A stretch of 29,035 bases of DNA from a virus (lineage: Duplodnaviria; Heunggongvirae; Uroviricota; Caudoviricetes). Below the pieces are notes generated by a model. The model made no database searches. It was not told where the DNA came from and worked only from the letters and a program-made list of their open reading frames with translations. The stretch's first letter is position 1. Each line of letters opens with the position of its first letter. The stretch lies in IMG/VR virus record IMGVR_UViG_2850778813_000007. The stretch is one strand, 5' to 3'. This document shows, piece by piece, positions 1 through 16,485 of this stretch. A program made the position numbers and the translations under genes.

Positions 1-333
1 TCAGGGTGCGGAAGGACTAAAGATAAACGTTTTCTTCACGCCTTTACACGGCCTGTCCTTCTCAAATCGCCATTTTGCCATCGCCTTTACAACCTGCTCA
101 TCAAACAGATGGTGCGGCTCTGAACGAATAAACTCAATTCGGGTGACAGTACCATCAGCACCAATATCAAACCTCACATCAACCCGTCCCTTTATATAAT
201 TTGCCGCTGCATAGGCCGGATATTGTGGTAATGCCTTAACCAACTGTCGGGGCATATCTGTTTTATGTTGCGTACAGCCCATAACCAGAGAAGACAACAA
301 AATAATTAACGGAAGGTTTCTTTTCATTTTCAT
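1..333 (-). CDS. Lipoprotein with TonB C-terminal-like domain (prophage accessory gene downstream of lysis cassette)
   Basis: ORF track 1..342; basic N-terminus then hydrophobic stretch ending in lipobox-like LVMGC; remainder matches the TonB_C pattern (PQYP..A.....G.V.V.F.I..DG.V..I.....LFD..V.KAM.KWRF). Start could be GTG 342, ATG 333 or ATG 327. Confidence 0.5.
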   Translation of the reverse strand: MKMKRNLPLIILLSSLVMGCTQHKTDMPRQLVKALPQYPAYAAANYIKGRVDVRFDIGADGTVTRIEFIRSEPHHLFDEQVVKAMAKWRFEKDRPCKGVKKTFIFSPSAP

Positions 334-671
334 TCCCGGCACAGATAAGAATAAGTCTTATTCTAACAATGCCACCCTGTCGGTCATCAATCCTCTGCTT
401 AATGGCAACGACAATTATCCGACTTAAATCACAAATCAGACACATGACATAACAGAGCTTGCGAGGTAACACATCGTCCGGTTTCTTCCACCATCGCACC
501 GGACCAGCGACCATGAGGGGACAACGCCGCGCTCCGTTAACGCGGTAAACCCCGGTGTGTATCGTTTTTGATTATCCCCGCACACTCGCGCAGAGGAGTC
601 TCCCGGTCGGGCTGCGGTCTCTGTTAATGCGGGGATACGGCGACAATACCGCGCATGGTTAATAAGGTCGC

Positions 672-896
672 TCAACACACTGGCTGTAATGCAGCGGATA
701 CCATGCGGCATTTAGCGGCATTCATCGTACACTCAACGGTTAGCTCTTCATTCGTGGCATTCACCTGAAAGGTCCGGGAGTGTAATTGCGTACATTTACC
801 ACTGAACGAACCTTCAACAAGAACACGACCACGCTGCAAAATACGGAACGGAATTGTTCCCTGAAAAGGCTTTACGGTTACCAGTAATTTCTTCAT
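672..896 (-). CDS. Hypothetical 74-aa protein immediately downstream of Rz
   Basis: ORF track 672..914; internal ATG at 896 preceded by GGAG with 5-nt spacer; begins 24 nt after the Rz stop. No recognisable family. Confidence 0.35.
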   Translation of the reverse strand: MKKLLVTVKPFQGTIPFRILQRGRVLVEGSFSGKCTQLHSRTFQVNATNEELTVECTMNAAKCRMVSAALQPVC

Positions 897-919: not shown

Positions 920-1393
920 CTAGTTAATACACTGAGTGCGGATATATTCCTGCGCCCCTTCCAGTTGCTTCTGCATTGTCATCAACCGCTCTCTGAGGGT
1001 GAAATAATCCCGTTCAGCGGTGTCTGCCAGTCGGGGGCCGGTTGCATTATCCATTCCGGAGGTGCCGGTGGCTTCACGCACGGTACCGGAGCAGGTGGCG
1101 TTGATCCGCAGGCGCTTACGACCAGCGGCAACATCAGCACGCAGAGTTTCATTTTCAGCTCTCGCATCGGCTAATTCCCTTGAGTATCTGGCATCAAGCG
1201 CAGCAACATCACGCTGGCGCTGCTGCATGTCAGTAATGGTTGCGTTTGCCAGCTCCAGCTCTCTGGCTTTTTTATCGCGCTGCGCTTTGTAGGTGATGGC
1301 GTTATCACGGTAATGGTCTGTTGCCAGCCACAGCGCACCACAGACCACCAGCAGAATAACGGTAAACGCGGAAAGCATTCGGTTTATGTTCAC
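920..1393 (-). CDS. Rz: Rz i-spanin (lysis, inner-membrane spanin subunit)
   Basis: 157-aa ORF with N-terminal TM segment and long helical periplasmic part; strong resemblance to lambda Rz (..[64 protein letters not shown]). Start is GTG at 1393 or ATG at 1378. Confidence 0.8.
982..1152 (-). CDS. Rz1: Rz1 o-spanin lipoprotein, embedded in the +1 frame of Rz
   Basis: ORF track 982..1167 nested entirely inside Rz; [15 protein letters not shown] signal with lipobox followed by a proline-rich segment, the classic Rz1 architecture. Confidence 0.7.
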
Positions 1394-1521
1394 CCCAGCA
1401 GCCCCGACGAAGACAACATCATCCAGGCCATGGAAAGAAAAAGAGCAACCAGCATTAGTGAAAATGAAATGCCGACAATTACACAGAGGATCTTCGCCAG
1501 CGTTATGAGTTTGTCTGACAT
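1390..1521 (-). CDS. 43-aa hydrophobic single-TM peptide, translationally coupled to Rz
   Basis: ATG at 1521 preceded by AGGGAGG with 7-nt spacer; product [43 protein letters not shown]; its TGA stop overlaps the Rz GTG start (GTGA). Confidence 0.35.
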
Positions 1522-1535
1522 GCTTAATCCTCCCT

Positions 1536-1718
1536 TCACGATTTCAACGCAATGACCAGTTTTGCCAGCCCATACAGCATCGGGGACACAGCAACACCGA
1601 CCGCCATCCACTTAATGGCAAAAGCCAGTGCTCTGCTGATGTCATCAGTTACAGGCGCTTTCAGTTCAAGGCCGTTTTTCATGGTCAACCTCAACAGAAT
1701 TCGTTTATACTTCGCCAT
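1536..1718 (-). CDS. Hypothetical 60-aa protein between endolysin and Rz
   Basis: ORF track 1536..1751; ATG at 1718 preceded by AAGGGAGAA; C-terminal hydrophobic stretch; stop codon lies inside the SD of the downstream 43-aa peptide gene. Confidence 0.3.
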
Positions 1719-1751
1719 GTTCTCCCTTGCCTTACTCAAGGTCAGAAACAC

Positions 1752-1785
1752 AAAACCCCGCTTGGTGCCAACAAACGGGGTTTTT
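1752..1785. terminator. Bidirectional rho-independent terminator-like hairpin between endolysin and downstream small genes
   Basis: AAAACCCCG ..15 nt.. CGGGGTTTTT: GC stem flanked by an A-run on one side and a T-run on the other, so a U-tract follows the hairpin on either strand. Confidence 0.45.
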
Positions 1786-1874
1786 ACTTTTATTCACTTA
1801 CGTTTCGCCAGTTCGCAGGATTTCGTGTTATCCGTCCGCGTGCTCATGCCTTATTTTTCAGCAAAATATTCTGC

Positions 1875-2408
1875 TTATCTGTCGATGTCCCAGCACGCCA
1901 GCGCACTTTCCTGGTCTCGCCGGGATACCTGACCGTAGCAATTATTTGAGCGGATACGGCAGTCTCTGCCACCGTCCTTAATCCACCAGCGAATCGCTTC
2001 GCATGCTCCCCTGCGGTCACCAGCATTAATCCGTCTGTAAAACGTCGACGGGAAACACTTACCGGGGCCAATGTTATAGGGACAAAATGACGCGATACCC
2101 GCTTTCTGGGGTTCGGTCAGCGGCACTTTAATATTGCGCTCCACCCATGCCAGCGCCTTATCACGCTCAATGGCGTTGACCTGGTCGCATTTTTCCTTCG
2201 ACAACTTCATGCCCGGGACGACAGGTTTACTATCCACCAGGATGGCACCGCGGCAGATGGTCCAGATACCCGCGCCATCACGGTATGCCGTGGTGTGGTT
2301 ACCTTCCTTTTCATCCAGAAACTGGTCGAGGATTTCAGGCGCAGGCGCACCTGCGGCAATCAGCGCCAGAACGGCAGCCGACAGGCCGTATTTGATTTTG
2401 GTGTTCAT
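1875..2408 (-). CDS. R: Phage endolysin, T4-lysozyme-like fold with N-terminal SAR-type hydrophobic segment
   Basis: 177-aa ORF; N-terminal YGLSAAVLALIAAGAPAPE hydrophobic segment followed by a lysozyme-like catalytic region (EGNHTTAYRDGAGIWTICRGA); sits between holin and Rz. Confidence 0.85.
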   Translation of the reverse strand: MNTKIKYGLSAAVLALIAAGAPAPEILDQFLDEKEGNHTTAYRDGAGIWTICRGAILVDSKPVVPGMKLSKEKCDQVNAIERDKALAWVERNIKVPLTEPQKAGIASFCPYNIGPGKCFPSTFYRRINAGDRRGACEAIRWWIKDGGRDCRIRSNNCYGQVSRRDQESALACWDIDR

Positions 2409-2458: not shown

Positions 2459-2803
2459 TCAGGCCAGCGGTGGAGTCTTCAGAGAACCCGTAATTATTCC
2501 CGGTAGTTTTCCTCTGTAGGTTATCAACACATCCTGCGCCTCTAAAATTACGGGGCGCTTTTCCGGCAACGGACCATCCCCTTCACATAACCCGGCAGCA
2601 ACATCCATGAAAAACTGCTTCGCCTGCTTTTTCGCCTCAGCTTCGTAAAACTCCAGCGTGGCATCTTCAGTACGGTCAAGACTAATCGCCACATCTGGCA
2701 ACAACAGTGACGGATACCCACCAATTTCCAGTGCCACAGTAACAGTAATCTTATTCGGGTAATTATTTATCCCTTTAACAACCAGTTCGTATTTTTTCTT
2801 CAT
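2459..2803 (-). CDS. Hypothetical protein between holin and endolysin (YdfR/DUF1327-like by position)
   Basis: 114-aa ORF starting 4 nt after the holin stop; position matches the essQ-ydfR-rrrQ arrangement of K-12 Qin; sequence similarity not verified. Confidence 0.45.
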   Translation of the reverse strand: MKKKYELVVKGINNYPNKITVTVALEIGGYPSLLLPDVAISLDRTEDATLEFYEAEAKKQAKQFFMDVAAGLCEGDGPLPEKRPVILEAQDVLITYRGKLPGIITGSLKTPPLA

Positions 2804-2807
2804 CGCT

Positions 2808-3023
2808 TTACTCTCCCCGCGCCGCCTTACGACGGTCCTCTCTGATTTTGAAATACAGGTTAGTCAGATATGTCAGCAGCCCAAACAACAGACTCCCCAG
2901 CACGCCTATTGCCGCCCACTGAGACGGGGAAACCCTGTCCAGCAACTGCAGGAACCAGTAGCCCGTTCCCACCGCTGACGTGGTGTATGACACACCTGTT
3001 GTGATTTTTTCCATCTGGTACAT
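2808..3023 (-). CDS. S: Class II holin (S21-like pinholin) with dual-start motif
   Basis: ORF track 2808..3077; ATG at 3023 preceded by GGGAG; product [10 protein letters not shown]...[50 protein letters not shown] closely resembles S21/EssD; Met1/Met4 give the holin/antiholin pair. Confidence 0.8.
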
Positions 3024-3099
3024 ACCCCGTCTCCCGCAATCCGGAAGCTCACAACAATATAAAGACCACCGGCACACACCGATGGTCCCTTGCGCATGC

Positions 3100-3327
3100 T
3101 TACATCATCATGTCGCTGTCAGGTGTAGGTTCACCGCCATCTGAAGCACTCCCGTCACCCGCGATACCTTCCGGCTCAGGAACCGCTGCTACGCCCAGCA
3201 GCTCATCCAGAATGGCATCCACTTCTGCATCAAGACGCGACTCAAGATTCTGGCGAAGTTTCTGTTTCAGTGCGCTCCGGACTTCCTTCACTGCCTCTGC
3301 AGTGACCAGGGATGTGATTTCTGACAT
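3100..3327 (-). CDS. Hypothetical acidic 75-aa protein (late region)
   Basis: ORF track 3100..3489; internal ATG at 3327 gives [16 protein letters not shown]... ending in an acidic tail and MMM; the antisense ORF 3110..3343 is low-complexity S/A/P-rich. Confidence 0.4.
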
Positions 3328-3352: not shown

Positions 3353-3535
3353 TTAAGGAGTAACGGGTTCTTCGGGTTTGCTTCCGGCTGACTGACTGGC
3401 GCTGATTTTCTCAGCGGCCCTTTTATCAATCTGCCTGCACCAGAAATCGCGCACAGCCCTGTACCCACCCGAAAGAAGATACAGCACACAGACCGCCGTA
3501 CAGAAGTACAGCATCACCTGATGAATAAATGTCAT
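3353..3535 (-). CDS. Hypothetical 60-aa membrane protein
   Basis: ORF track; hydrophobic N-terminus (VMLYFCTAVCVLYLL); weak RBS. Confidence 0.3.
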   Translation of the reverse strand: MTFIHQVMLYFCTAVCVLYLLSGGYRAVRDFWCRQIDKRAAEKISASQSAGSKPEEPVTP

Positions 3536-3673: not shown

Positions 3674-5554
3674 TTATGCGGCTGCTCCAGCTTTGTTTGC
3701 TTTAACTTCCACCGTATCAATAAGTACAGGGTAGGTTTCTGCACTACCTGTAATATCCGTAATGACAAACCTGTTGAGTCCATTAGCAGTATTGGCCCAT
3801 TTCACCAGGTCAAACGCCTGTCCATCCACACCATCAAGCACCGGAGTAACATTAATGCTGTTACTGCCCTTAAATTTAAATGCAAGCGTATGCCAGTCAT
3901 GGTCGAATGCGCCAAACGTGCCAAGTTCTTTTTGTTGATTAACTGTATGATGGTATGCAATATTAATACTGGCTTTATCTGTCTGGACAAAGAAAGAACT
4001 CAGATGGCCTTCACCACCCTCACCCGGCCATTCCGCTATTCGCCAGTACAAACCAAAGGCATACTTGTTTCTGGTTGTCTCAAGATTGACGTTTTCGGGG
4101 ATTTTAAACCGGACAGCAATTTCCCCGCCTTTTTCCAGTAAAAGTTTTGCCTTGTCTGCAGCAATATCACAGTACATTGACCAGGATTTCGCGCTGTTAT
4201 TTTTCTCAATTCGCAGAGCTTTATTGCCGCTGTCATCAACCAGTGTGCGTCTGCCATACATACCGTCCCAGCCATAAGGTTTCAGCTGATTGTCTGTAGC
4301 TTTTTTGGCATCGTAAAAAATTACAGACTCTGAGGTGGTAACCGGCCTGTCTGGAACAACCACCCCGGCAGTACCATTAACAAACGCAGAAGACTTACCC
4401 GCGCAGCTCAGAATCGCCGTTGCCAGACGGTCGGAAATAATCCCACGGCGAGCCCATGAACTGAAATGGCTCGCCCTGTCCTGTGACGTCCAGGTGGCTG
4501 AGCTGTCACGCCATTTCGAACCGTAATAACCGATACCCGGAATGTCCGGGTCTTCTTCCGGTTTGTTCGTCGGCACATTCACCCCGTTCTCATCGGTCAT
4601 GAACGGTACGAAATGGATATTCTTTTCCGTTTTATTTTTATAGCTGCCGTACACCGTCTGGTACGTGGATTCGTTCTTCTGCTTCCAGAAATACGTCGTG
4701 TCCCCGCATATCCAGGGAACACCGCCAGCAGAGCCACCGACGCACTGGCCTGCCATATCCGCCAGGTCTGCACGGAATTTATCAACCAGCGCACCAAACT
4801 GTGCGGCATGATTTGCCGGCGTACCGCCAAAATCAAATTCCCCCTGCATCCACACCACGGCAAACAGCACATTTTTCGGGTTCTTCTCCAGTGCCGCTTT
4901 TGTTCGACCGATAAGGTCCTTATACAGCGGCTTGTCCACACCCCAGCGGGTTGAATTCTCCGAGGCACCACTCGCGTCACTGTATGTGCCATCAGCTCCG
5001 GTGGTGAACGCTGAACCACCACGACAGCACGGAACCAGCAGAATGCCCGCATTCGCCGGTATAAACGGCAGCAGTTTTTTGGCGATATGCAGCCCCTGCC
5101 CCACGGTTCCGTACTGCCCCTTTGACAGGTCCGCTTTCGGATGGTTAAGACGGCTCATGTCCTGCACATCATGCAGACAATGGTCCGCCGGAATGATGTC
5201 GTTATATTTGCATGCTGCACCGCCCGGTGTCACCGTACTGCGACGCGCCAGTTGCTTAATACGCGGGTCCGGACGGTCATATGTCCCCGGCAGCGGAAGG
5301 CCTTCACCATACGACATGCCGTTTGACTGCCCTGCCAGAACCACAACAAAGTAATACTCCGGGTTGCTGGTGGCGCTGATTACTGCACCTTCTGCTGCAA
5401 TCGCCTGCATCAGAGTATAAGGGGTTATGGCCACCGGACTACCAAACGGCTGCCAGCCCTCTTTCAGTTTATGTGTCAGCTTTTCCGCAAGATCTGACGG
5501 CGACGCCGCCCTGACAACATCATAGTGTTTAAATGCCATGGTTCTTTCCACCAT
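3674..5554 (-). CDS. nanS-p: NanS-p-type prophage 9-O-acetyl-sialate esterase (DUF1737 N-terminus plus SASA/SGNH esterase domain)
   Basis: 626-aa ORF; VVVLAGQSNGMSYG motif typical of sialate O-acetylesterases; this family sits immediately downstream of stxAB in Stx phages. Start is ATG 5554 or ATG 5539. Confidence 0.8.
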   Translation of the reverse strand: MVERTMAFKHYDVVRAASPSDLAEKLTHKLKEGWQPFGSPVAITPYTLMQAIAAEGAVISATSNPEYYFVVVLAGQSNGMSYGEGLPLPGTYDRPDPRIKQLARRSTVTPGGAACKYNDIIPADHCLHDVQDMSRLNHPKADLSKGQYGTVGQGLHIAKKLLPFIPANAGILLVPCCRGGSAFTTGADGTYSDASGASENSTRWGVDKPLYKDLIGRTKAALEKNPKNVLFAVVWMQGEFDFGGTPANHAAQFGALVDKFRADLADMAGQCVGGSAGGVPWICGDTTYFWKQKNESTYQTVYGSYKNKTEKNIHFVPFMTDENGVNVPTNKPEEDPDIPGIGYYGSKWRDSSATWTSQDRASHFSSWARRGIISDRLATAILSCAGKSSAFVNGTAGVVVPDRPVTTSESVIFYDAKKATDNQLKPYGWDGMYGRRTLVDDSGNKALRIEKNNSAKSWSMYCDIAADKAKLLLEKGGEIAVRFKIPENVNLETTRNKYAFGLYWRIAEWPGEGGEGHLSSFFVQTDKASINIAYHHTVNQQKELGTFGAFDHDWHTLAFKFKGSNSINVTPVLDGVDGQAFDLVKWANTANGLNRFVITDITGSAETYPVLIDTVEVKANKAGAAA

Positions 5555-6154: not shown

Positions 6155-6189
6155 CAAAATCAATATAAACAGCCCCTCCGGAGAGGGGC
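6155..6189 (-). terminator. Terminator-like hairpin just beyond the 3' end of the AT-rich ORF
   Basis: GCCCCTC-CGGA-GAGGGGC 7-bp stem at 6172..6189; on the minus strand it is followed by a U-rich tract (CUGUUUAUAUUGAUUUU). Confidence 0.4.
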
Positions 6190-6386
6190 TGGAGAGTGGC
6201 GCTATGTGCCATTGCATGGTGCCGGGTGCCTCCCGGTGAATTCAGTACCAGCACCTGAATCTGCGATTATCCCATATACCTACTCGCTGATTGCCCCTCC
6301 GCACAGGGGGATTCACCATGCCAGTTTCTTTTAACAAACTCCCCGCAAACCAGACAACAGTCAACCGCCTGAATTGTGAGACATTT

Positions 6387-6425: not shown

Positions 6426-6502
6426 TGGCGCGTTCTACTGTATTCGAACCAGTGACCGATTGCTTAGAAGGCAATTGCTCTGTCCGGCTGAGCTAACAAC
6501 GC
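6426..6502 (-). tRNA. argO: tRNA-Arg (anticodon UCU), argO-like
   Basis: Manual fold: acceptor GCGTTGT, D-arm GCTC/GAGC, anticodon loop CTTCTAA, T-loop TTCGAAT, 3' GCCA encoded. One acceptor mismatch and a non-canonical 53-61 pair in my fold. Confidence 0.65.
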
Positions 6503-6518
6503 AGGATACAGATAATGA

Positions 6519-6592
6519 ACCGCCTTCGGGGACCCGAACTCCGCGCAACCAGCTTCGAAGGCTGGCGCTCTTTCCTGATGAGCTAATGGCGG
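6519..6592 (-). tRNA. argN: tRNA-Arg (anticodon UCG), argN-like; possibly imperfect
   Basis: Manual fold: D-arm TAGCTC..GAGC, anticodon stem CCAGC/GCTGG with loop CTTCGAA; acceptor and T stems each carry one mismatch and position 1 is C. Confidence 0.5.
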
Positions 6593-6602
6593 TATGTGAT
6601 AG

Positions 6603-6675
6603 TGGCCCTTGCTGGATTTGAACCAGCGACCTGGCGATTATGAGTCGCTCGCTCTCACCACTGAGCTAAAGGGCC
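6603..6675 (-). tRNA. ileZ: tRNA-Ile2 (anticodon CAU, lysidine type), ileZ/ileX-like
   Basis: Sequence GGCCCTTTAGCTCAGTGGTGAGAGCGAGCGACTCATAATCGCCAGGTCGCTGGTTCAAATCCAGCAAGGGCCA folds canonically and closely matches E. coli ileX; CCA not encoded. Confidence 0.8.
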
Positions 6676-8348: not shown

Positions 8349-9170
8349 CTATCGCGTTACCCTCTTTAACTGCCGCTCCGCCCATGCCTCTTCAATGTCA
8401 AACCGAACCACCAACGTATCGTAAAAGCGTTTCACTGATTTTTTCCACGTATCAAGCGTGATAGCACTCGTCACTTTGCATATGGCATTAAATGCCTCCG
8501 TTGATGGTAGTCTTTCACAGCCACGACCACCACAACGCTGGCAGTCTCTGATAACAGGCATACCACGTTTTACCGACTCTTCACGATGAATGGCGACACC
8601 ACGCCCACGGCAATCCTTACAGGCGGTGGAAACCTCACCCTTTCCGCCACACTCCGGACAGGCAACTTTTACCACCTCCCTGACTTTTTTCCATTCTTCC
8701 CAGTAAGACGGATACACGCCTTTTGTGCACTTTGCCCACACTGGTGGCTTACCATCCGGATACTGGATCTTGTTTGTAAAAACCTCGCTTTCAATAAATT
8801 TTTTTCCGTGACAGCAGGGGCACTGTTTTTTGCTCGCCGCGCTACGGGCATAATCTTCAAACGCATACGAAGCCATAATGCGCATCACTACCGGTTTTAT
8901 TTCTGCCGGAAGTTTTCTCAACGCCGCTACACGATCGCACCGACTGAGTGCATAATCTGCCAGTAATTCTGTTGCCCGCGCCCTGTCATTCATACTGATG
9001 CCCATTTTCCCCAGGAACGCAGAAAACCCCATCTCAGCCCGATTCTGTGTCATGCCCTGCGCGGCCATCACATCAGTGATACTCAGCGCATCTTTTGACG
9101 TTGAGGCCGATGCATCGGTCAGGCTAGGGGATTTTGGGGAGTAGTATTTCGGTAAATCTTCCAGTTTCAT
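8349..9170 (-). CDS. Putative late-gene antiterminator Q-like protein with four CxxCxGxG zinc-ribbon repeats
   Basis: 273-aa ORF directly downstream of rusA and upstream of terminators and late genes (the Q position); CPCCHGKK, CPECGGKG, CKDCRGRG, CQRCGGRG repeats. Family assignment is by position and length, not confirmed. Confidence 0.5.
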   Translation of the reverse strand: MKLEDLPKYYSPKSPSLTDASASTSKDALSITDVMAAQGMTQNRAEMGFSAFLGKMGISMNDRARATELLADYALSRCDRVAALRKLPAEIKPVVMRIMASYAFEDYARSAASKKQCPCCHGKKFIESEVFTNKIQYPDGKPPVWAKCTKGVYPSYWEEWKKVREVVKVACPECGGKGEVSTACKDCRGRGVAIHREESVKRGMPVIRDCQRCGGRGCERLPSTEAFNAICKVTSAITLDTWKKSVKRFYDTLVVRFDIEEAWAERQLKRVTR

Positions 9171-14633: not shown

Positions 14634-14824
14634 GGACGCACCTCCACCGTAGTTACGTATTTAACCGGGCTACCTTTCATTGAGATGGTTTCACACATCT
14701 CTGCCGCTTTCAGTTCCGCTGTTTTTCTGGATTTATAGCGACGGTGCCAGACAGATACATCCGTGCGAACTGATACATCGTTTCTGTATTCCGTAGTGGA
14801 GATGATGATTTCGTAACTAATCAT
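14630..14824 (-). CDS. Hypothetical 64-aa protein
   Basis: ORF track; 4-nt overlap with the Rha-like gene stop and the next gene start. Confidence 0.35.
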   Translation of the reverse strand: MISYEIIISTTEYRNDVSVRTDVSVWHRRYKSRKTAELKAAEMCETISMKGSPVKYVTTVEVRP

Positions 14825-15372
14825 GGGCGAACCTCCTTGTCAGAACCATTCAGCCTGGAATCAACAAGTGCAGCGCCAAAAACAGCATCACCAACACGGT
14901 CGTACAGTTTGCTAGCCAGCGGAGATTCAACGGCCTTAAGCATTGGATAAAGCTGGCTTGTCCAGATTTGATGGATTTCACGCAAATGCAGGTATACGCC
15001 TCTGGCGTTTCGTGCGACAGCTGACATATCAACCGCGTCAGCACCAGATAAATTCTTCTCCATCTGGTTAAAGGCGTTGATGTATGCCTCTTTGAACCGG
15101 GCTGCACGTTTGCCAGTAAAGCCCATAGCAAGGAACGCGAAGCCATCGCGGGTGATTTGATAGCAAGGTAGTTTGCGGCCTGTGCAATCGGTGTAATCAC
15201 TGGGCTGAAAATTCAGCTCAGTGAATTCAACAGAGCACTCAAGCGTCTGGATTTTTTGAATAACGTTTTTGTGCTGCTTGCAGAAATATTCGGCAACGGC
15301 CAAAGAAGAGGTAACAGCCTTCCCATGGATAACATCAATTTTAGGGTGAGTTTGGGTAGGGGTGGTTGCCAT
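14821..15372 (-). CDS. Phage regulatory protein, Rha/antirepressor-type N-terminal domain
   Basis: ORF track 14821..15669; ATG at 15372 preceded by GAGGA with 7-nt spacer; product MATTPTQTHPKIDVIHGKAVTSSLAVAEYFCKQHKNVIQKI...YQITRDGFAFLAMGFTGKRAARFKEAYINAFNQME. The in-frame upstream extension is treated as non-coding. Confidence 0.6.
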   Translation of the reverse strand: MATTPTQTHPKIDVIHGKAVTSSLAVAEYFCKQHKNVIQKIQTLECSVEFTELNFQPSDYTDCTGRKLPCYQITRDGFAFLAMGFTGKRAARFKEAYINAFNQMEKNLSGADAVDMSAVARNARGVYLHLREIHQIWTSQLYPMLKAVESPLASKLYDRVGDAVFGAALVDSRLNGSDKEVRP

Positions 15373-15535
15373 AGTGACATCCTCATGTGCGAATTTTGAA
15401 AACTCACCACATGGGACGCCAATCACAGAGGTGGTGAGACGTACAGGGTTGGCGTAACCGGTCGCACATGACCCCGGCGCATCTTTCGATGCCCCTGCAC
15501 GCCCCACCATAATTTGGATGTGAGGAAACGTGCGC

Positions 15536-15558
15536 AAAAAAACCGCTGAAGCGCGGTT
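15536..15558 (-). terminator. Rho-independent terminator downstream of the 235-aa regulator gene
   Basis: Minus strand AACCGC-GCTTCA-GCGGTT followed by TTTTT. Confidence 0.4.
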
Positions 15559-15777
15559 ATGCGCATGTGCGAATTTCAGGACGCCAATCCCGGCACCCGC
15601 TTTATAAGGTGCGGAGACAGTGTAACGTCCCGAAATTGCAGAATCAATATTTGGTCTTGAAATGATCATATAGCTGCTGATATCTTTAGAACTGTTCTTG
15701 GATGTTTCGGAGCCGTTTTATGCGAAACAGCTCCCCGTTATTGATGTTGAGTGAGCCGGGTTACTCCCGGCTTTTTT

Positions 15778-16485
15778 TCACCGCTGCCAACCAATAACCT
15801 GAAATAACCCCATTTTCGGGTGATACCAGCGAGTCCCTCGCGGTTCTGCTTCCTCCATAACCCGATAAAAAGCAGCCATAAACGGTTCCACAGCAACAAT
15901 TGCGCGACGTGGCAACAATCTGTCCGGCGTCATGAACTCATGGGTGTCTGTAGGAATTTGATAGGCGTTCACCAGATTGCGGCATTTATCATCTGACAAA
16001 CCGGTTTTTGCTTTCAGTTGGCGATATCCGGCATAGCCCTCACGAATAGTGCCCTTTTTAATTTGCTCGACTGTTTCAGCAACGTGGCTGACTTTTTCTT
16101 CCACCTGAGTGATCCGTTTCTGTTGGCGAACGGCTTCAAGAGCCATCGCGGCAACCATTTCGATTTCGCTCATTGGCTTACGGATCTGTTCTTCCAGTTC
16201 GCGCCAGCGATCTACCAGGCGAGCTGTGAATTCAGGACAGAGCTGTGCGACGACAATGATGCTGTCGCGCTTACCTCGTTCACCTTCGAATACATACGCG
16301 CTAGAAAATCGGCGAGGCCCAAGTGATTGTTTATTCTCAATTTCCACAGTCTGTGGAAATTGGATGATTCCCTTTTTAGCCAGTGTTTCAATAGTTCTCT
16401 TAACACTATCTGGTCGGCTTCCCACCAGCTCTGCGATCTCAACGCTGGTCATGGATGCTTTGCCGTTAAAAATTGCGGTGTTCAT
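15778..16485 (-). CDS. Phage regulatory protein with N-terminal HTH-type domain (Rha/ORF6N-like) and helical C-terminus
   Basis: 235-aa ORF; MTSVEIAELVGSRPDSVKRTIETLAKKGII N-terminal motif; RBS AGGAGA; ATGA overlap with the upstream Cro-like gene. Confidence 0.5.
   Translation of the reverse strand: MNTAIFNGKASMTSVEIAELVGSRPDSVKRTIETLAKKGIIQFPQTVEIENKQSLGPRRFSSAYVFEGERGKRDSIIVVAQLCPEFTARLVDRWRELEEQIRKPMSEIEMVAAMALEAVRQQKRITQVEEKVSHVAETVEQIKKGTIREGYAGYRQLKAKTGLSDDKCRNLVNAYQIPTDTHEFMTPDRLLPRRAIVAVEPFMAAFYRVMEEAEPRGTRWYHPKMGLFQVIGWQR

Follow-up and report, generated by a model that had tools for sequence, protein, structure and literature searches.

Two micro-membrane-protein genes between endolysin and spanins in an Escherichia coli lambdoid prophage: a candidate Rz-coupling reading frame and a mobile hairpin-o60 cassette

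We suggest that the interval between the endolysin gene R and the spanin gene Rz of an Escherichia coli prophage (the 29,035-nt stretch analysed here, called the window, whose positions give all coordinates below unless a comparison locus is named) holds two genuine genes for single-pass inner-membrane micro-proteins. The one next to Rz, a 43-codon open reading frame (ORF) that we call pep (1390..1521, minus strand), would couple translation to Rz. The other, a 60-codon ORF that we call o60 (1536..1718, minus strand), would form with the hairpin before it (1752..1784) a mobile lysis-accessory cassette gated by antisense RNA. Taken as a whole, we give this proposal about an even chance; the reality of both genes, their arrangement and linkage, the patterns of selection and the promoter and terminator motifs are established, whereas the coupling, the antisense RNA, the second o60 start and the part played in lysis are inferred. 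In order of transcription, the minus-strand lysis cassette runs S, YdfR/DUF1327, R, hairpin, o60, pep and Rz/Rz1. A first-pass annotation had described the hairpin, both ORFs, a strong Shine-Dalgarno (SD) sequence and a stop/start overlap with Rz, all of which were found, and had correctly set them outside the canonical S-R-Rz/Rz1 set. It had also treated the small genes as a pair; homology breakpoints instead put the hairpin and o60 together, and pep with Rz. Both ORFs would lie in the Q-dependent late transcript, with different histories and probably different jobs.

The separate histories emerge from a survey of about 130 IMG/VR loci plus phage records, in which the counts of types are biased by the way loci were retrieved. 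In every one of them pep lies directly 5' of Rz, across four architectures. Type A, that of the window (82 loci), has the hairpin and o60 in an R-to-pep gap of 356-357 nt; phage PhiR5_2 (PV340546), E. coli O104:H4 and ATCC 25922 are among its carriers. Type B (21 loci; 933W-like, Min27, BP-4795, P13374) has a gene for a 189-aa Ant in a gap of about 860 nt, and its pep begins MISDK..., with possible upstream starts. Type C (17 loci) fills a gap of 1067 nt with a 231-aa Rha-like gene and a 31-aa transmembrane (TM) mini-ORF, alpha (MKMIKTDWKFLLVWLIPFLWVVARLITAIKG). Type D (ST131 and others) runs hairpin, alpha-like ORF, pep, gamma, delta and Rz, four tandem single-TM mini-ORFs thus standing between R and Rz (L138 612..1177; L143 1208..1851; L-numbers denote comparison loci). 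Gamma corresponds to the C-terminal 38 codons of o60 and has a GTG start overlapping the pep stop, and the 28-aa delta, which matches phrog_4493, is a truncated o60-family member. Salmonella cassettes have o60 alone between a lysozyme gene of the signal-anchor-release (SAR) type and Rz, with no pep, and K-12 Qin has neither ORF. In one of the Salmonella loci (L139) a 34-codon hydrophobic ORF (2708..2812) overlaps the end of the lysozyme gene, and o60 opens with a GTG overlapped by the TGA of an 8-codon mini-ORF (2977..3003; MCREVYSL); both arrangements may serve coupling as well.

In blastn comparisons, R-side homology to the Ant-type and Rha-type loci stops at 1780-1789, just before the hairpin, and the Rz-side block opens exactly at the pep ATG, 1521. 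On its left the variable slot is anchored by R, whose 3' untranslated block (1789..1874) recurs in all architectures. Judged by these breakpoints, the variable slot, about 1522..1789, is the hairpin plus o60, a single mobile cassette. Its G+C content is 0.46-0.49, against 0.54-0.55 for R and Rz. The wider interval between SAR endolysin and spanins, with its pep, o60, Ant, Rha-like, alpha and delta genes, is a site of recombinational exchange, and the earlier statement that relatives carry an antirepressor-type gene at this place was confirmed, the slot being exchanged with such genes. Conservation of the 43-aa ORF extends to all the related cassettes that were examined, and the region aligns with no larger gene. 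Descent from a degraded larger gene was rejected on two grounds: the homologues are all small, longer entries being upstream read-throughs, other-frame calls across a pep copy or type D fusions, and the blastn breakpoints fall on gene boundaries. Frame-shifted or fused calls across the type D array account for many database "proteins" of 58-90 aa.

On the codon-level evidence, o60 is clearly protein-coding and under purifying selection. It opens with ATG behind the SD AAGGGAG (1722..1728) and matches phrog_1115 (1.5e-41) and phrog_4493 (3e-29); a 71-codon extension from a GTG, reaching 1751, is mechanical only. The product has a basic N-terminus, the family motif and one C-terminal TM helix. 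It occurs in 1598 complete E. coli genomes, full-length in 1044. Its ratio of nonsynonymous to synonymous polymorphism (pN/pS; pooled Nei-Gojobori) is 0.21 over 14 alleles, and between E. coli and Salmonella 0.29 (pS 0.42, pN 0.12), with differences spread 12/3/20 over the three codon positions, while its other frames give about 1 or more. This frame-specific analysis rejects a chance ORF and lends no support to a plus-strand ORF of 126 codons across the same region (1552..1932). By the same method the annotated frames of the cassette rank R 0.11, S 0.15, o60 0.21, Rz 0.48, ydfR 0.54 and pep 0.76.

As had been proposed, pep encodes a conserved 43-aa single-pass membrane peptide tightly abutting Rz. 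It matches phrog_4906 (2.1e-23), its SD (GAAGGGAGGA, 1528..1536) lies 7 nt before the ATG, and its Kyte-Doolittle maximum over a 19-residue window is 2.89, that of o60 being 1.86. We found pep in 1750 of 5426 complete E. coli genomes, at 4658 places and up to 11 times per genome, and by tblastn in 276 phage records at 65-100% identity, nearly all of them Shiga toxin (Stx) phages or other lambdoid phages of E. coli/Shigella, with the ORF often unannotated. The 601-nt region is at least 80% covered in 763 of the 5426 genomes, and PGAP annotates both pep and o60 as hypothetical proteins. The Sakai homologue of pep is the candidate gene XECs191, which was called translated by RIBOseq, with an RNA value in LB of 30.0 reads per kilobase per million (RPKM), a footprint RPKM of 12.6, a ratio of 0.43 and a coverage of 0.55 (PMC5597208).

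All 26 DNA alleles of pep are intact and exactly 43 codons long. Variable sites fall 15/9/13 over the codon positions, and along a minimum spanning tree of the alleles there are 55 replacement and 28 silent changes, about 2.4:1 being expected. In the TM core (residues 11-31), none of 22 replacements is radical (charged, polar, proline or stop), against 26% expected (P about 0.0014). Residues G17, S19, F20 and W33 are invariant, and the helix holds the small-xxx-small motifs G17xxxS21 and A26xxxS30. These patterns suggest that pep is weakly constrained, with selection acting only on its transmembrane character, the tests being approximate because related sequences were treated as independent. 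We regard pep as a genuine gene, chance being rejected less strongly here than for o60.

The geometry of the pep-Rz junction points to a job for pep. Its SD was called excellent in the first-pass annotation, and the duplex predicted with the anti-SD sequence, at -11.3 kcal/mol, is indeed the strongest in the cassette; S, ydfR and o60 give -7.4 to -8.5 kcal/mol, and R has no recognisable SD (+0.6 kcal/mol). Rz, the i-spanin gene (920..1393, minus strand; Pfam Phage_lysis PF03245, 7.1e-50), has a weak and badly spaced SD of -5 to -6 kcal/mol made by the G-run in the final pep codons; the conserved GGGGTGA at the end of pep supplies both the stop and this run. The overlap described earlier is present, the pep TGA (1390..1392) sharing the motif GTGA with a GTG that opens the Rz frame (1391..1393). 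PGAP starts Rz at an alternative ATG (1376..1378), 11 nt past the stop. The GTG is the better supported of the two because only it keeps the arginine at Rz position 3, which an N-terminal alignment shows to be invariant in lambda, Stx-phage and Salmonella Rz. Whatever the architecture, a mini-ORF stops 0-11 nt from the point where Rz starts.

Lambda offers the natural comparison, since its R and Rz overlap by 4 nt (ATGA), and in both phages the Rz gene, its own SD weak, begins at or beside the stop codon of the ORF before it. Unlike lambda, the window gives Rz as its partner a dedicated 43-codon micro-ORF with the strongest SD of the cassette in place of R, and pep is split from R by a terminator and an exchangeable gene. 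The strong pep SD would load ribosomes whose termination falls at the Rz start or 0-11 nt from it; with the pep SD strong and the Rz SD weak, pep would therefore restore the coupling that the 4-nt overlap gives lambda. From this geometry we infer that pep likely delivers ribosomes to Rz, re-creating a coupling lost when mobile DNA split Rz from R. The released peptide would be a generic TM helix inserting in the inner membrane, its sequence loosely constrained. The earlier suggestion that pep might modulate lysis timing fits less well when taken to mean a specific regulator: a coupling ORF or generic TM peptide fits better because the sequence evolves almost neutrally apart from its hydrophobicity. 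We found no covariation of pep with the Rz TM segment, the same pep type occurring with two Rz N-terminal alleles.

The hairpin that opens the o60 cassette is shaped like an intrinsic terminator for both strands, with a 13-bp stem (AAAACCCCG-N15-CGGGGTTTT) and a 7-nt loop. Its bidirectional character had been recognised; its extent had been put at 1752..1785, one base longer than we find. Folding energy is -18.9 kcal/mol on the minus (late) strand (z = -3.1, unequalled by any of 200 shuffles) and -15.7 kcal/mol on the plus strand, and T tracts follow on both (minus TTTTGTGTTTCTG, plus TTTTTACTTTTATT). Hairpins of this family, each set between two T tracts, stand 35-75 nt before o60-family ORFs in all contexts except a Yersinia remnant, and 4 of 10 aligned pairs carry compensatory changes. 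As the upstream genes are unrelated, the hairpin travels with o60. The annotation had cast it as a terminator separating R from the small genes: it is terminator-like, but as a mere separator it does not stand, since it accompanies the o60 family into unrelated phage contexts. That it is simply the terminator of R was likewise rejected, the Ant-type and Rha-type loci carrying a different, one-directional hairpin at the same place and the window's hairpin following o60 elsewhere. In L150 (2330..2820), a myovirus-like prophage ends with an o60-family gene that has near-identical copies of a double terminator (GCGGTTTTTTTGTG... plus AAAACCCCGGCTG...CAGTCGGGGTTTT) on either side, and recombination at the terminators may have brought the gene in.

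A profile search of 1.8 billion representatives brought together 22 relatives of o60, which share a conserved stretch ending in (L/V)DAP followed by the TM helix. They come from Klebsiella aerogenes, Yersinia enterocolitica, other Escherichia, Achromobacter and metagenomes, and Salmonella has them too; two scans of genome contigs found nothing, and the first viral scans gave near-identical loci only. The Salmonella relatives lie in the order SAR-type lysozyme, o60, Rz, as does L234 with an inserted methylase. The relative in L236 stands between a SAR endolysin and a different i-spanin, and those in L233 and L239 directly follow a GH19-like endolysin with a peptidoglycan-binding domain and precede small lipoproteins, no other holin being seen in the roughly 2.5 kb examined on each side of these two. 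The family is thus flanked by at least two endolysin kinds at the Pfam level (phage lysozyme, GH19-like) and at least two spanin types, and the lysozymes of the window and of Salmonella are distinct. That o60 prefers this junction, although the flanking endolysins and spanins belong to different families, speaks for a role related to lysis. Both o60 and pep show the basic traits of holins, in that they are small, have at least one TM domain and are encoded adjacent to an endolysin gene. On a Yersinia enterocolitica chromosome (L144-L146 2501..3101), a 49-aa o60-family ORF and Rz, stop and start 1 nt apart, have host genes and an IS110 element as neighbours, with neither holin nor endolysin present; more than 1000 contigs carry the ORF, and this remnant may be domesticated or addictive.

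A second, probable start lies inside o60, where GAGG (1689..1692, minus strand) precedes the ATG of Met13 (1680..1682) by a 6-nt spacer and would open a 48-aa form, MKNGLE.... Met13 is invariant in 13 family members, the arginine codon at this SD site is AGG in 11 of 11, and many database homologues are called from Met13. The 12-residue extension of the longer form holds four basic residues, and o60 possibly has a dual start giving 60-aa and 48-aa forms.

Opposite this part of the gene lies a sigma-70-like promoter (1682..1711, plus strand; TGGTCA, 18 nt, TATACT; 9 of 12 matches in a consensus scan) that falls inside o60 codons 3-13. The same element at the same codons is the only promoter-like match in 600 nt of L235 and L239, at 10 of 12, that of L232 being below the scan threshold, and by eye T[GAT]G[TA]CA, 18 nt, TATA[AC]T is kept in 12 of 14 diverged modules. 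When the codons of 12 diverged members are aligned, the third positions under both hexamers are fixed (Tyr TAT 11/11, Lys AAA, Arg CGA/AGA, xTG, Arg AGG 11/11, Leu TTG); over the following 18 codons the commonest third-position base reaches only 0.33-0.67. By this measure there is a nucleotide-level constraint on top of the coding constraint, and an antisense promoter inside o60 is likely. From promoter and terminator we predict a cis-antisense RNA of about 75 nt (1718..1794, plus strand), which would start opposite the o60 start codon, cross the o60 SD and end at the hairpin and its T tract. An Rfam match to the rimP leader at 1720..1794 (plus strand) is non-significant (25.6 bits against a 47-bit cut-off, E 0.42), and Rfam gave no family or antitoxin RNA match at the locus.

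Put together, the hairpin and o60 make up a self-contained mobile cassette of bidirectional terminator, SD and ORF, lodged most often at the endolysin/spanin junction. We posit that two devices silence o60, the terminator upstream and a short antisense RNA ending at the same hairpin, and that the protein is made only when antiterminated late transcription floods the locus. During lysis it would most likely target the inner membrane, as a holin- or antiholin-like accessory. A more far-reaching version, which we consider possible and rather doubtful, would make hairpin-o60 a mobile, antisense-gated small membrane effector of toxin-antitoxin (TA)-like layout with two isoforms, used as an auxiliary, or in some phages the sole, holin-like lysis protein and belonging to a shuffling pep/alpha/delta array at the endolysin/spanin junction that includes most Shiga-toxin phages.

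A number of observations weigh against the proposal. For pep, the pN/pS of the annotated frame is barely under those of the other two (0.81 and 1.08), and the peptide product may therefore be unimportant; Rz homologues, moreover, function without pep in lambda and in the Salmonella cassette, where Rz has its own SD. For the cassette, AAAACCCC...GGGGTTTT is a common terminator shape, and the promoter hexamers lie in coding sequence, so that part of their conservation is due to the protein. The transcription start site (TSS) supplements of an EDL933 study held no match to the promoter sequence strings, no transcript, TSS or protein evidence for the locus was found in the literature, and no sense-strand sigma-70-like promoter for o60 or pep was found from the hairpin to the ORF or just upstream. 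As to lysis, o60 matches no holin family in a Pfam scan, and it ends in ...VIALKS (relatives in ...IRWW or ...ALK), with none of the charged C-terminal tail typical of holins. Finally, some genes of its family lie outside lysis cassettes: L235 has one in a tail module, L147 and L153 have theirs within baseplate modules, and in L150 and L152 the gene follows tail-fibre genes. Such placement in tail modules argues for a general cargo gene.

Other explanations draw on the same evidence. The hairpin, o60 and antisense RNA might be a selfish type I toxin-antitoxin system serving prophage stabilisation or abortive infection, for which the lysis cassette is merely a permissive site. A hydrophobic protein of at most 60 aa, a predicted antisense RNA over its ribosome-binding site and a terminator of its own would suit such a system, as would the movement of the cassette between unrelated phage modules and its retention beside Rz in the decayed Yersinia enterocolitica prophage; the Stx2 prophage Sp5 provides a precedent in hokW-sokW (PMC8621323). 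We nonetheless think it unlikely, since no sense toxin promoter was found and two terminators stand upstream in several contexts, nothing at the locus matches an Rfam antitoxin RNA, a Pfam toxin family or PADLOC, and most members sit at the endolysin/spanin junction, which a purely selfish element would not need. The first-pass annotation had also raised a toxin-like role for the 43-aa peptide; if either ORF is toxin-like, the evidence points to the 60-aa one.

For pep the main competitor, which we also judge improbable, is that it is only a leader or coupling ORF, or is kept by its linkage to Rz, the peptide having no function of its own. The near-neutral pN/pS and the spread of variable sites agree with this, and so do the module boundary exactly at the pep ATG, the GGGGTGA end and the restriction of pep to lambdoid phages of Escherichia/Shigella. 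Yet its length is fixed without indels across alleles 65-100% identical, charged, polar, proline and stop changes are significantly avoided in the TM core, four residues are invariant, and in type D pep stays intact though two other mini-ORFs separate it from Rz. Least probable, in our estimation, is that both ORFs are morons expressed in the lysogen for superinfection exclusion or host-membrane modulation and are not lysis genes at all. The slot is an exchange point that also holds antirepressor genes, it is an insertion between R and Rz and lower than both in G+C, remote o60 relatives occupy classic moron sites (after tail-fibre genes, inside tail modules), and uninduced Sakai cultures gave RNA and ribosome signal for the pep homologue. 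Against this, no sense promoter was found between terminator and ORFs, pep never occurs away from Rz, and the Sakai signal is low and could stem from spontaneous induction. The terminator of the slot lies upstream of the genes rather than downstream.

Several known systems resemble parts of the locus. In phage P22, the short sar RNA controls the antirepressor gene ant at its translation-initiation region. The o60 locus likewise has a predicted antisense RNA opposite the initiation region of a phage gene, and an ant-type gene fills the same slot in Stx phages; o60 is nevertheless a different gene, with no sequence relation to ant. With type I TA systems of the symE/SymR 5'-overlap kind and with hokW-sokW (PMC8621323), o60 has in common a hydrophobic product that is small and single-pass, an intrinsic terminator, a prophage site and, by prediction, a short cis-antisense RNA covering the ribosome-binding site; it differs from them in matching no known family by sequence or covariance model, in having no toxin promoter that we could find, in that its RNA and toxicity are predicted only, and in its preference for the endolysin/spanin junction. 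Dual-start holins (lambda S105/S107, phage 21 S68/S71) are, like o60, small membrane proteins of lysis cassettes; o60 may have two in-frame starts as well, its longer form carrying extra positive charges, and P1 has in LydC and LydD extra holin-like proteins (PMC9025707), o60 being similarly a small membrane protein within a lysis cassette. What sets o60 apart is its single TM helix, the near absence of a C-terminal tail and the failure to match any Pfam holin family, and the window already has a pinholin of the S21 type. The C-terminus of pep, ...SSSGLLG, also lacks a charged hydrophilic tail, and its Pfam scan gave only a sub-threshold match to DUF3930 and no holin family. The closest described extra membrane protein beside a SAR endolysin is the Mu releasin gp25 (DUF2730), a small membrane-anchored accessory whose gene, like o60 and pep, lies just downstream of the endolysin gene (PMC9239132). 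Mu gp25 has 99 aa, an N-out/C-in topology and an acidic cytoplasmic domain of 73 aa (PMC9239132); o60 and pep differ in size and topology and have no acidic cytoplasmic domain, no DUF2730 match in Pfam and no soluble domain. Neither has the periplasmic coiled coil or lipobox of spanins, and Pfam, NCBIfam and PADLOC returned no family for either; phrog_4906, phrog_1115 and phrog_4493 are all of unknown function.

The rest of the cassette is conventional. S (2808..3023, minus strand) encodes a class II holin, or pinholin, of the S21 type (Phage_holin_2_1, PF04971, 9e-33), R (1875..2408, minus strand) a SAR-type lysozyme endolysin (Pfam Phage_lysozyme 2.8e-24; N-terminus YGLSAAVLALIAAGAPAP), and the o-spanin gene Rz1 (982..1167, minus strand) is embedded in Rz. 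The YdfR/DUF1327 gene (2459..2803, minus strand; 114 aa; phrog_406 and others, function unknown) sits between pinholin and SAR endolysin in only part of the related cassettes, S-ydfR-R and S-R orders both occurring. Downstream of Rz lies a conserved 74-aa ORF (672..896, minus strand; phrog_2571, function unknown), found after Rz in type D loci too, and then a lipoprotein gene with a TonB_C domain, cut by the window edge (1..342, minus strand); the window has no bor gene at the lambda position downstream of Rz.

In the 5' direction of transcription, the cassette is preceded by the Q antiterminator, a DNA methylase, three tRNAs, STnc100, a NanS-p-like esterase and the DUF1378 and DUF826 genes, and the window is a lambdoid prophage with the late-region layout of Stx phages. 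The small RNA (sRNA) STnc100 (126.9 bits) adjoins the tRNA genes Met-CAT, Arg-TCG and Arg-TCT (6161..6350 and 6426..6675, minus strand). This stretch, downstream of Q (8349..9170) and the methylase, is where Stx phages hold stx; no toxin gene was noticed from the tRNAs to the esterase (3674..5554). A terminator-like hairpin of 13 pairs (3061..3090, minus strand) lies directly upstream of the holin gene and after the small genes DUF826 (3100..3327, minus strand) and DUF1378 (3353..3535, minus strand); a 2026 preprint locates the sRNA genes PasA/PasC between esterase and holin in such prophages. Farther off, isrK (62 bits) adjoins a C4 antisense RNA (75 bits) at 15427..15612 (minus strand), next to an ORF at 14821..15669 and a Rha/helix-turn-helix protein at 15778..16485, which suggests a c4-controlled antirepressor immunity region of the P1/P7 type within a lambdoid prophage.

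Holin, endolysin and spanins are taken to account for the whole lysis cassette of lambdoid and Stx phages. One to four unstudied micro-membrane-protein genes nevertheless stand exactly between endolysin and spanins in about a third of complete E. coli genomes and in almost every Stx phage searched. Both pep and o60 are widespread and annotated as hypothetical, yet unnamed in the literature searched: the accession numbers and peptide strings of the ORFs led to no paper, and papers on Stx-phage genomics and Pas sRNAs do not describe these elements. In the o60 cassette we have a compact example of a promoter lying within a gene and, possibly, a new family of antisense-controlled membrane peptides. 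Even if the ORFs are dispensable, they would explain how Rz retained translational coupling after mobile genes invaded the R/Rz junction. Both the phage and Stx need this cassette for their release, so a newly found control of lysis timing or spanin dosage within it would bear on how the toxin gets out.

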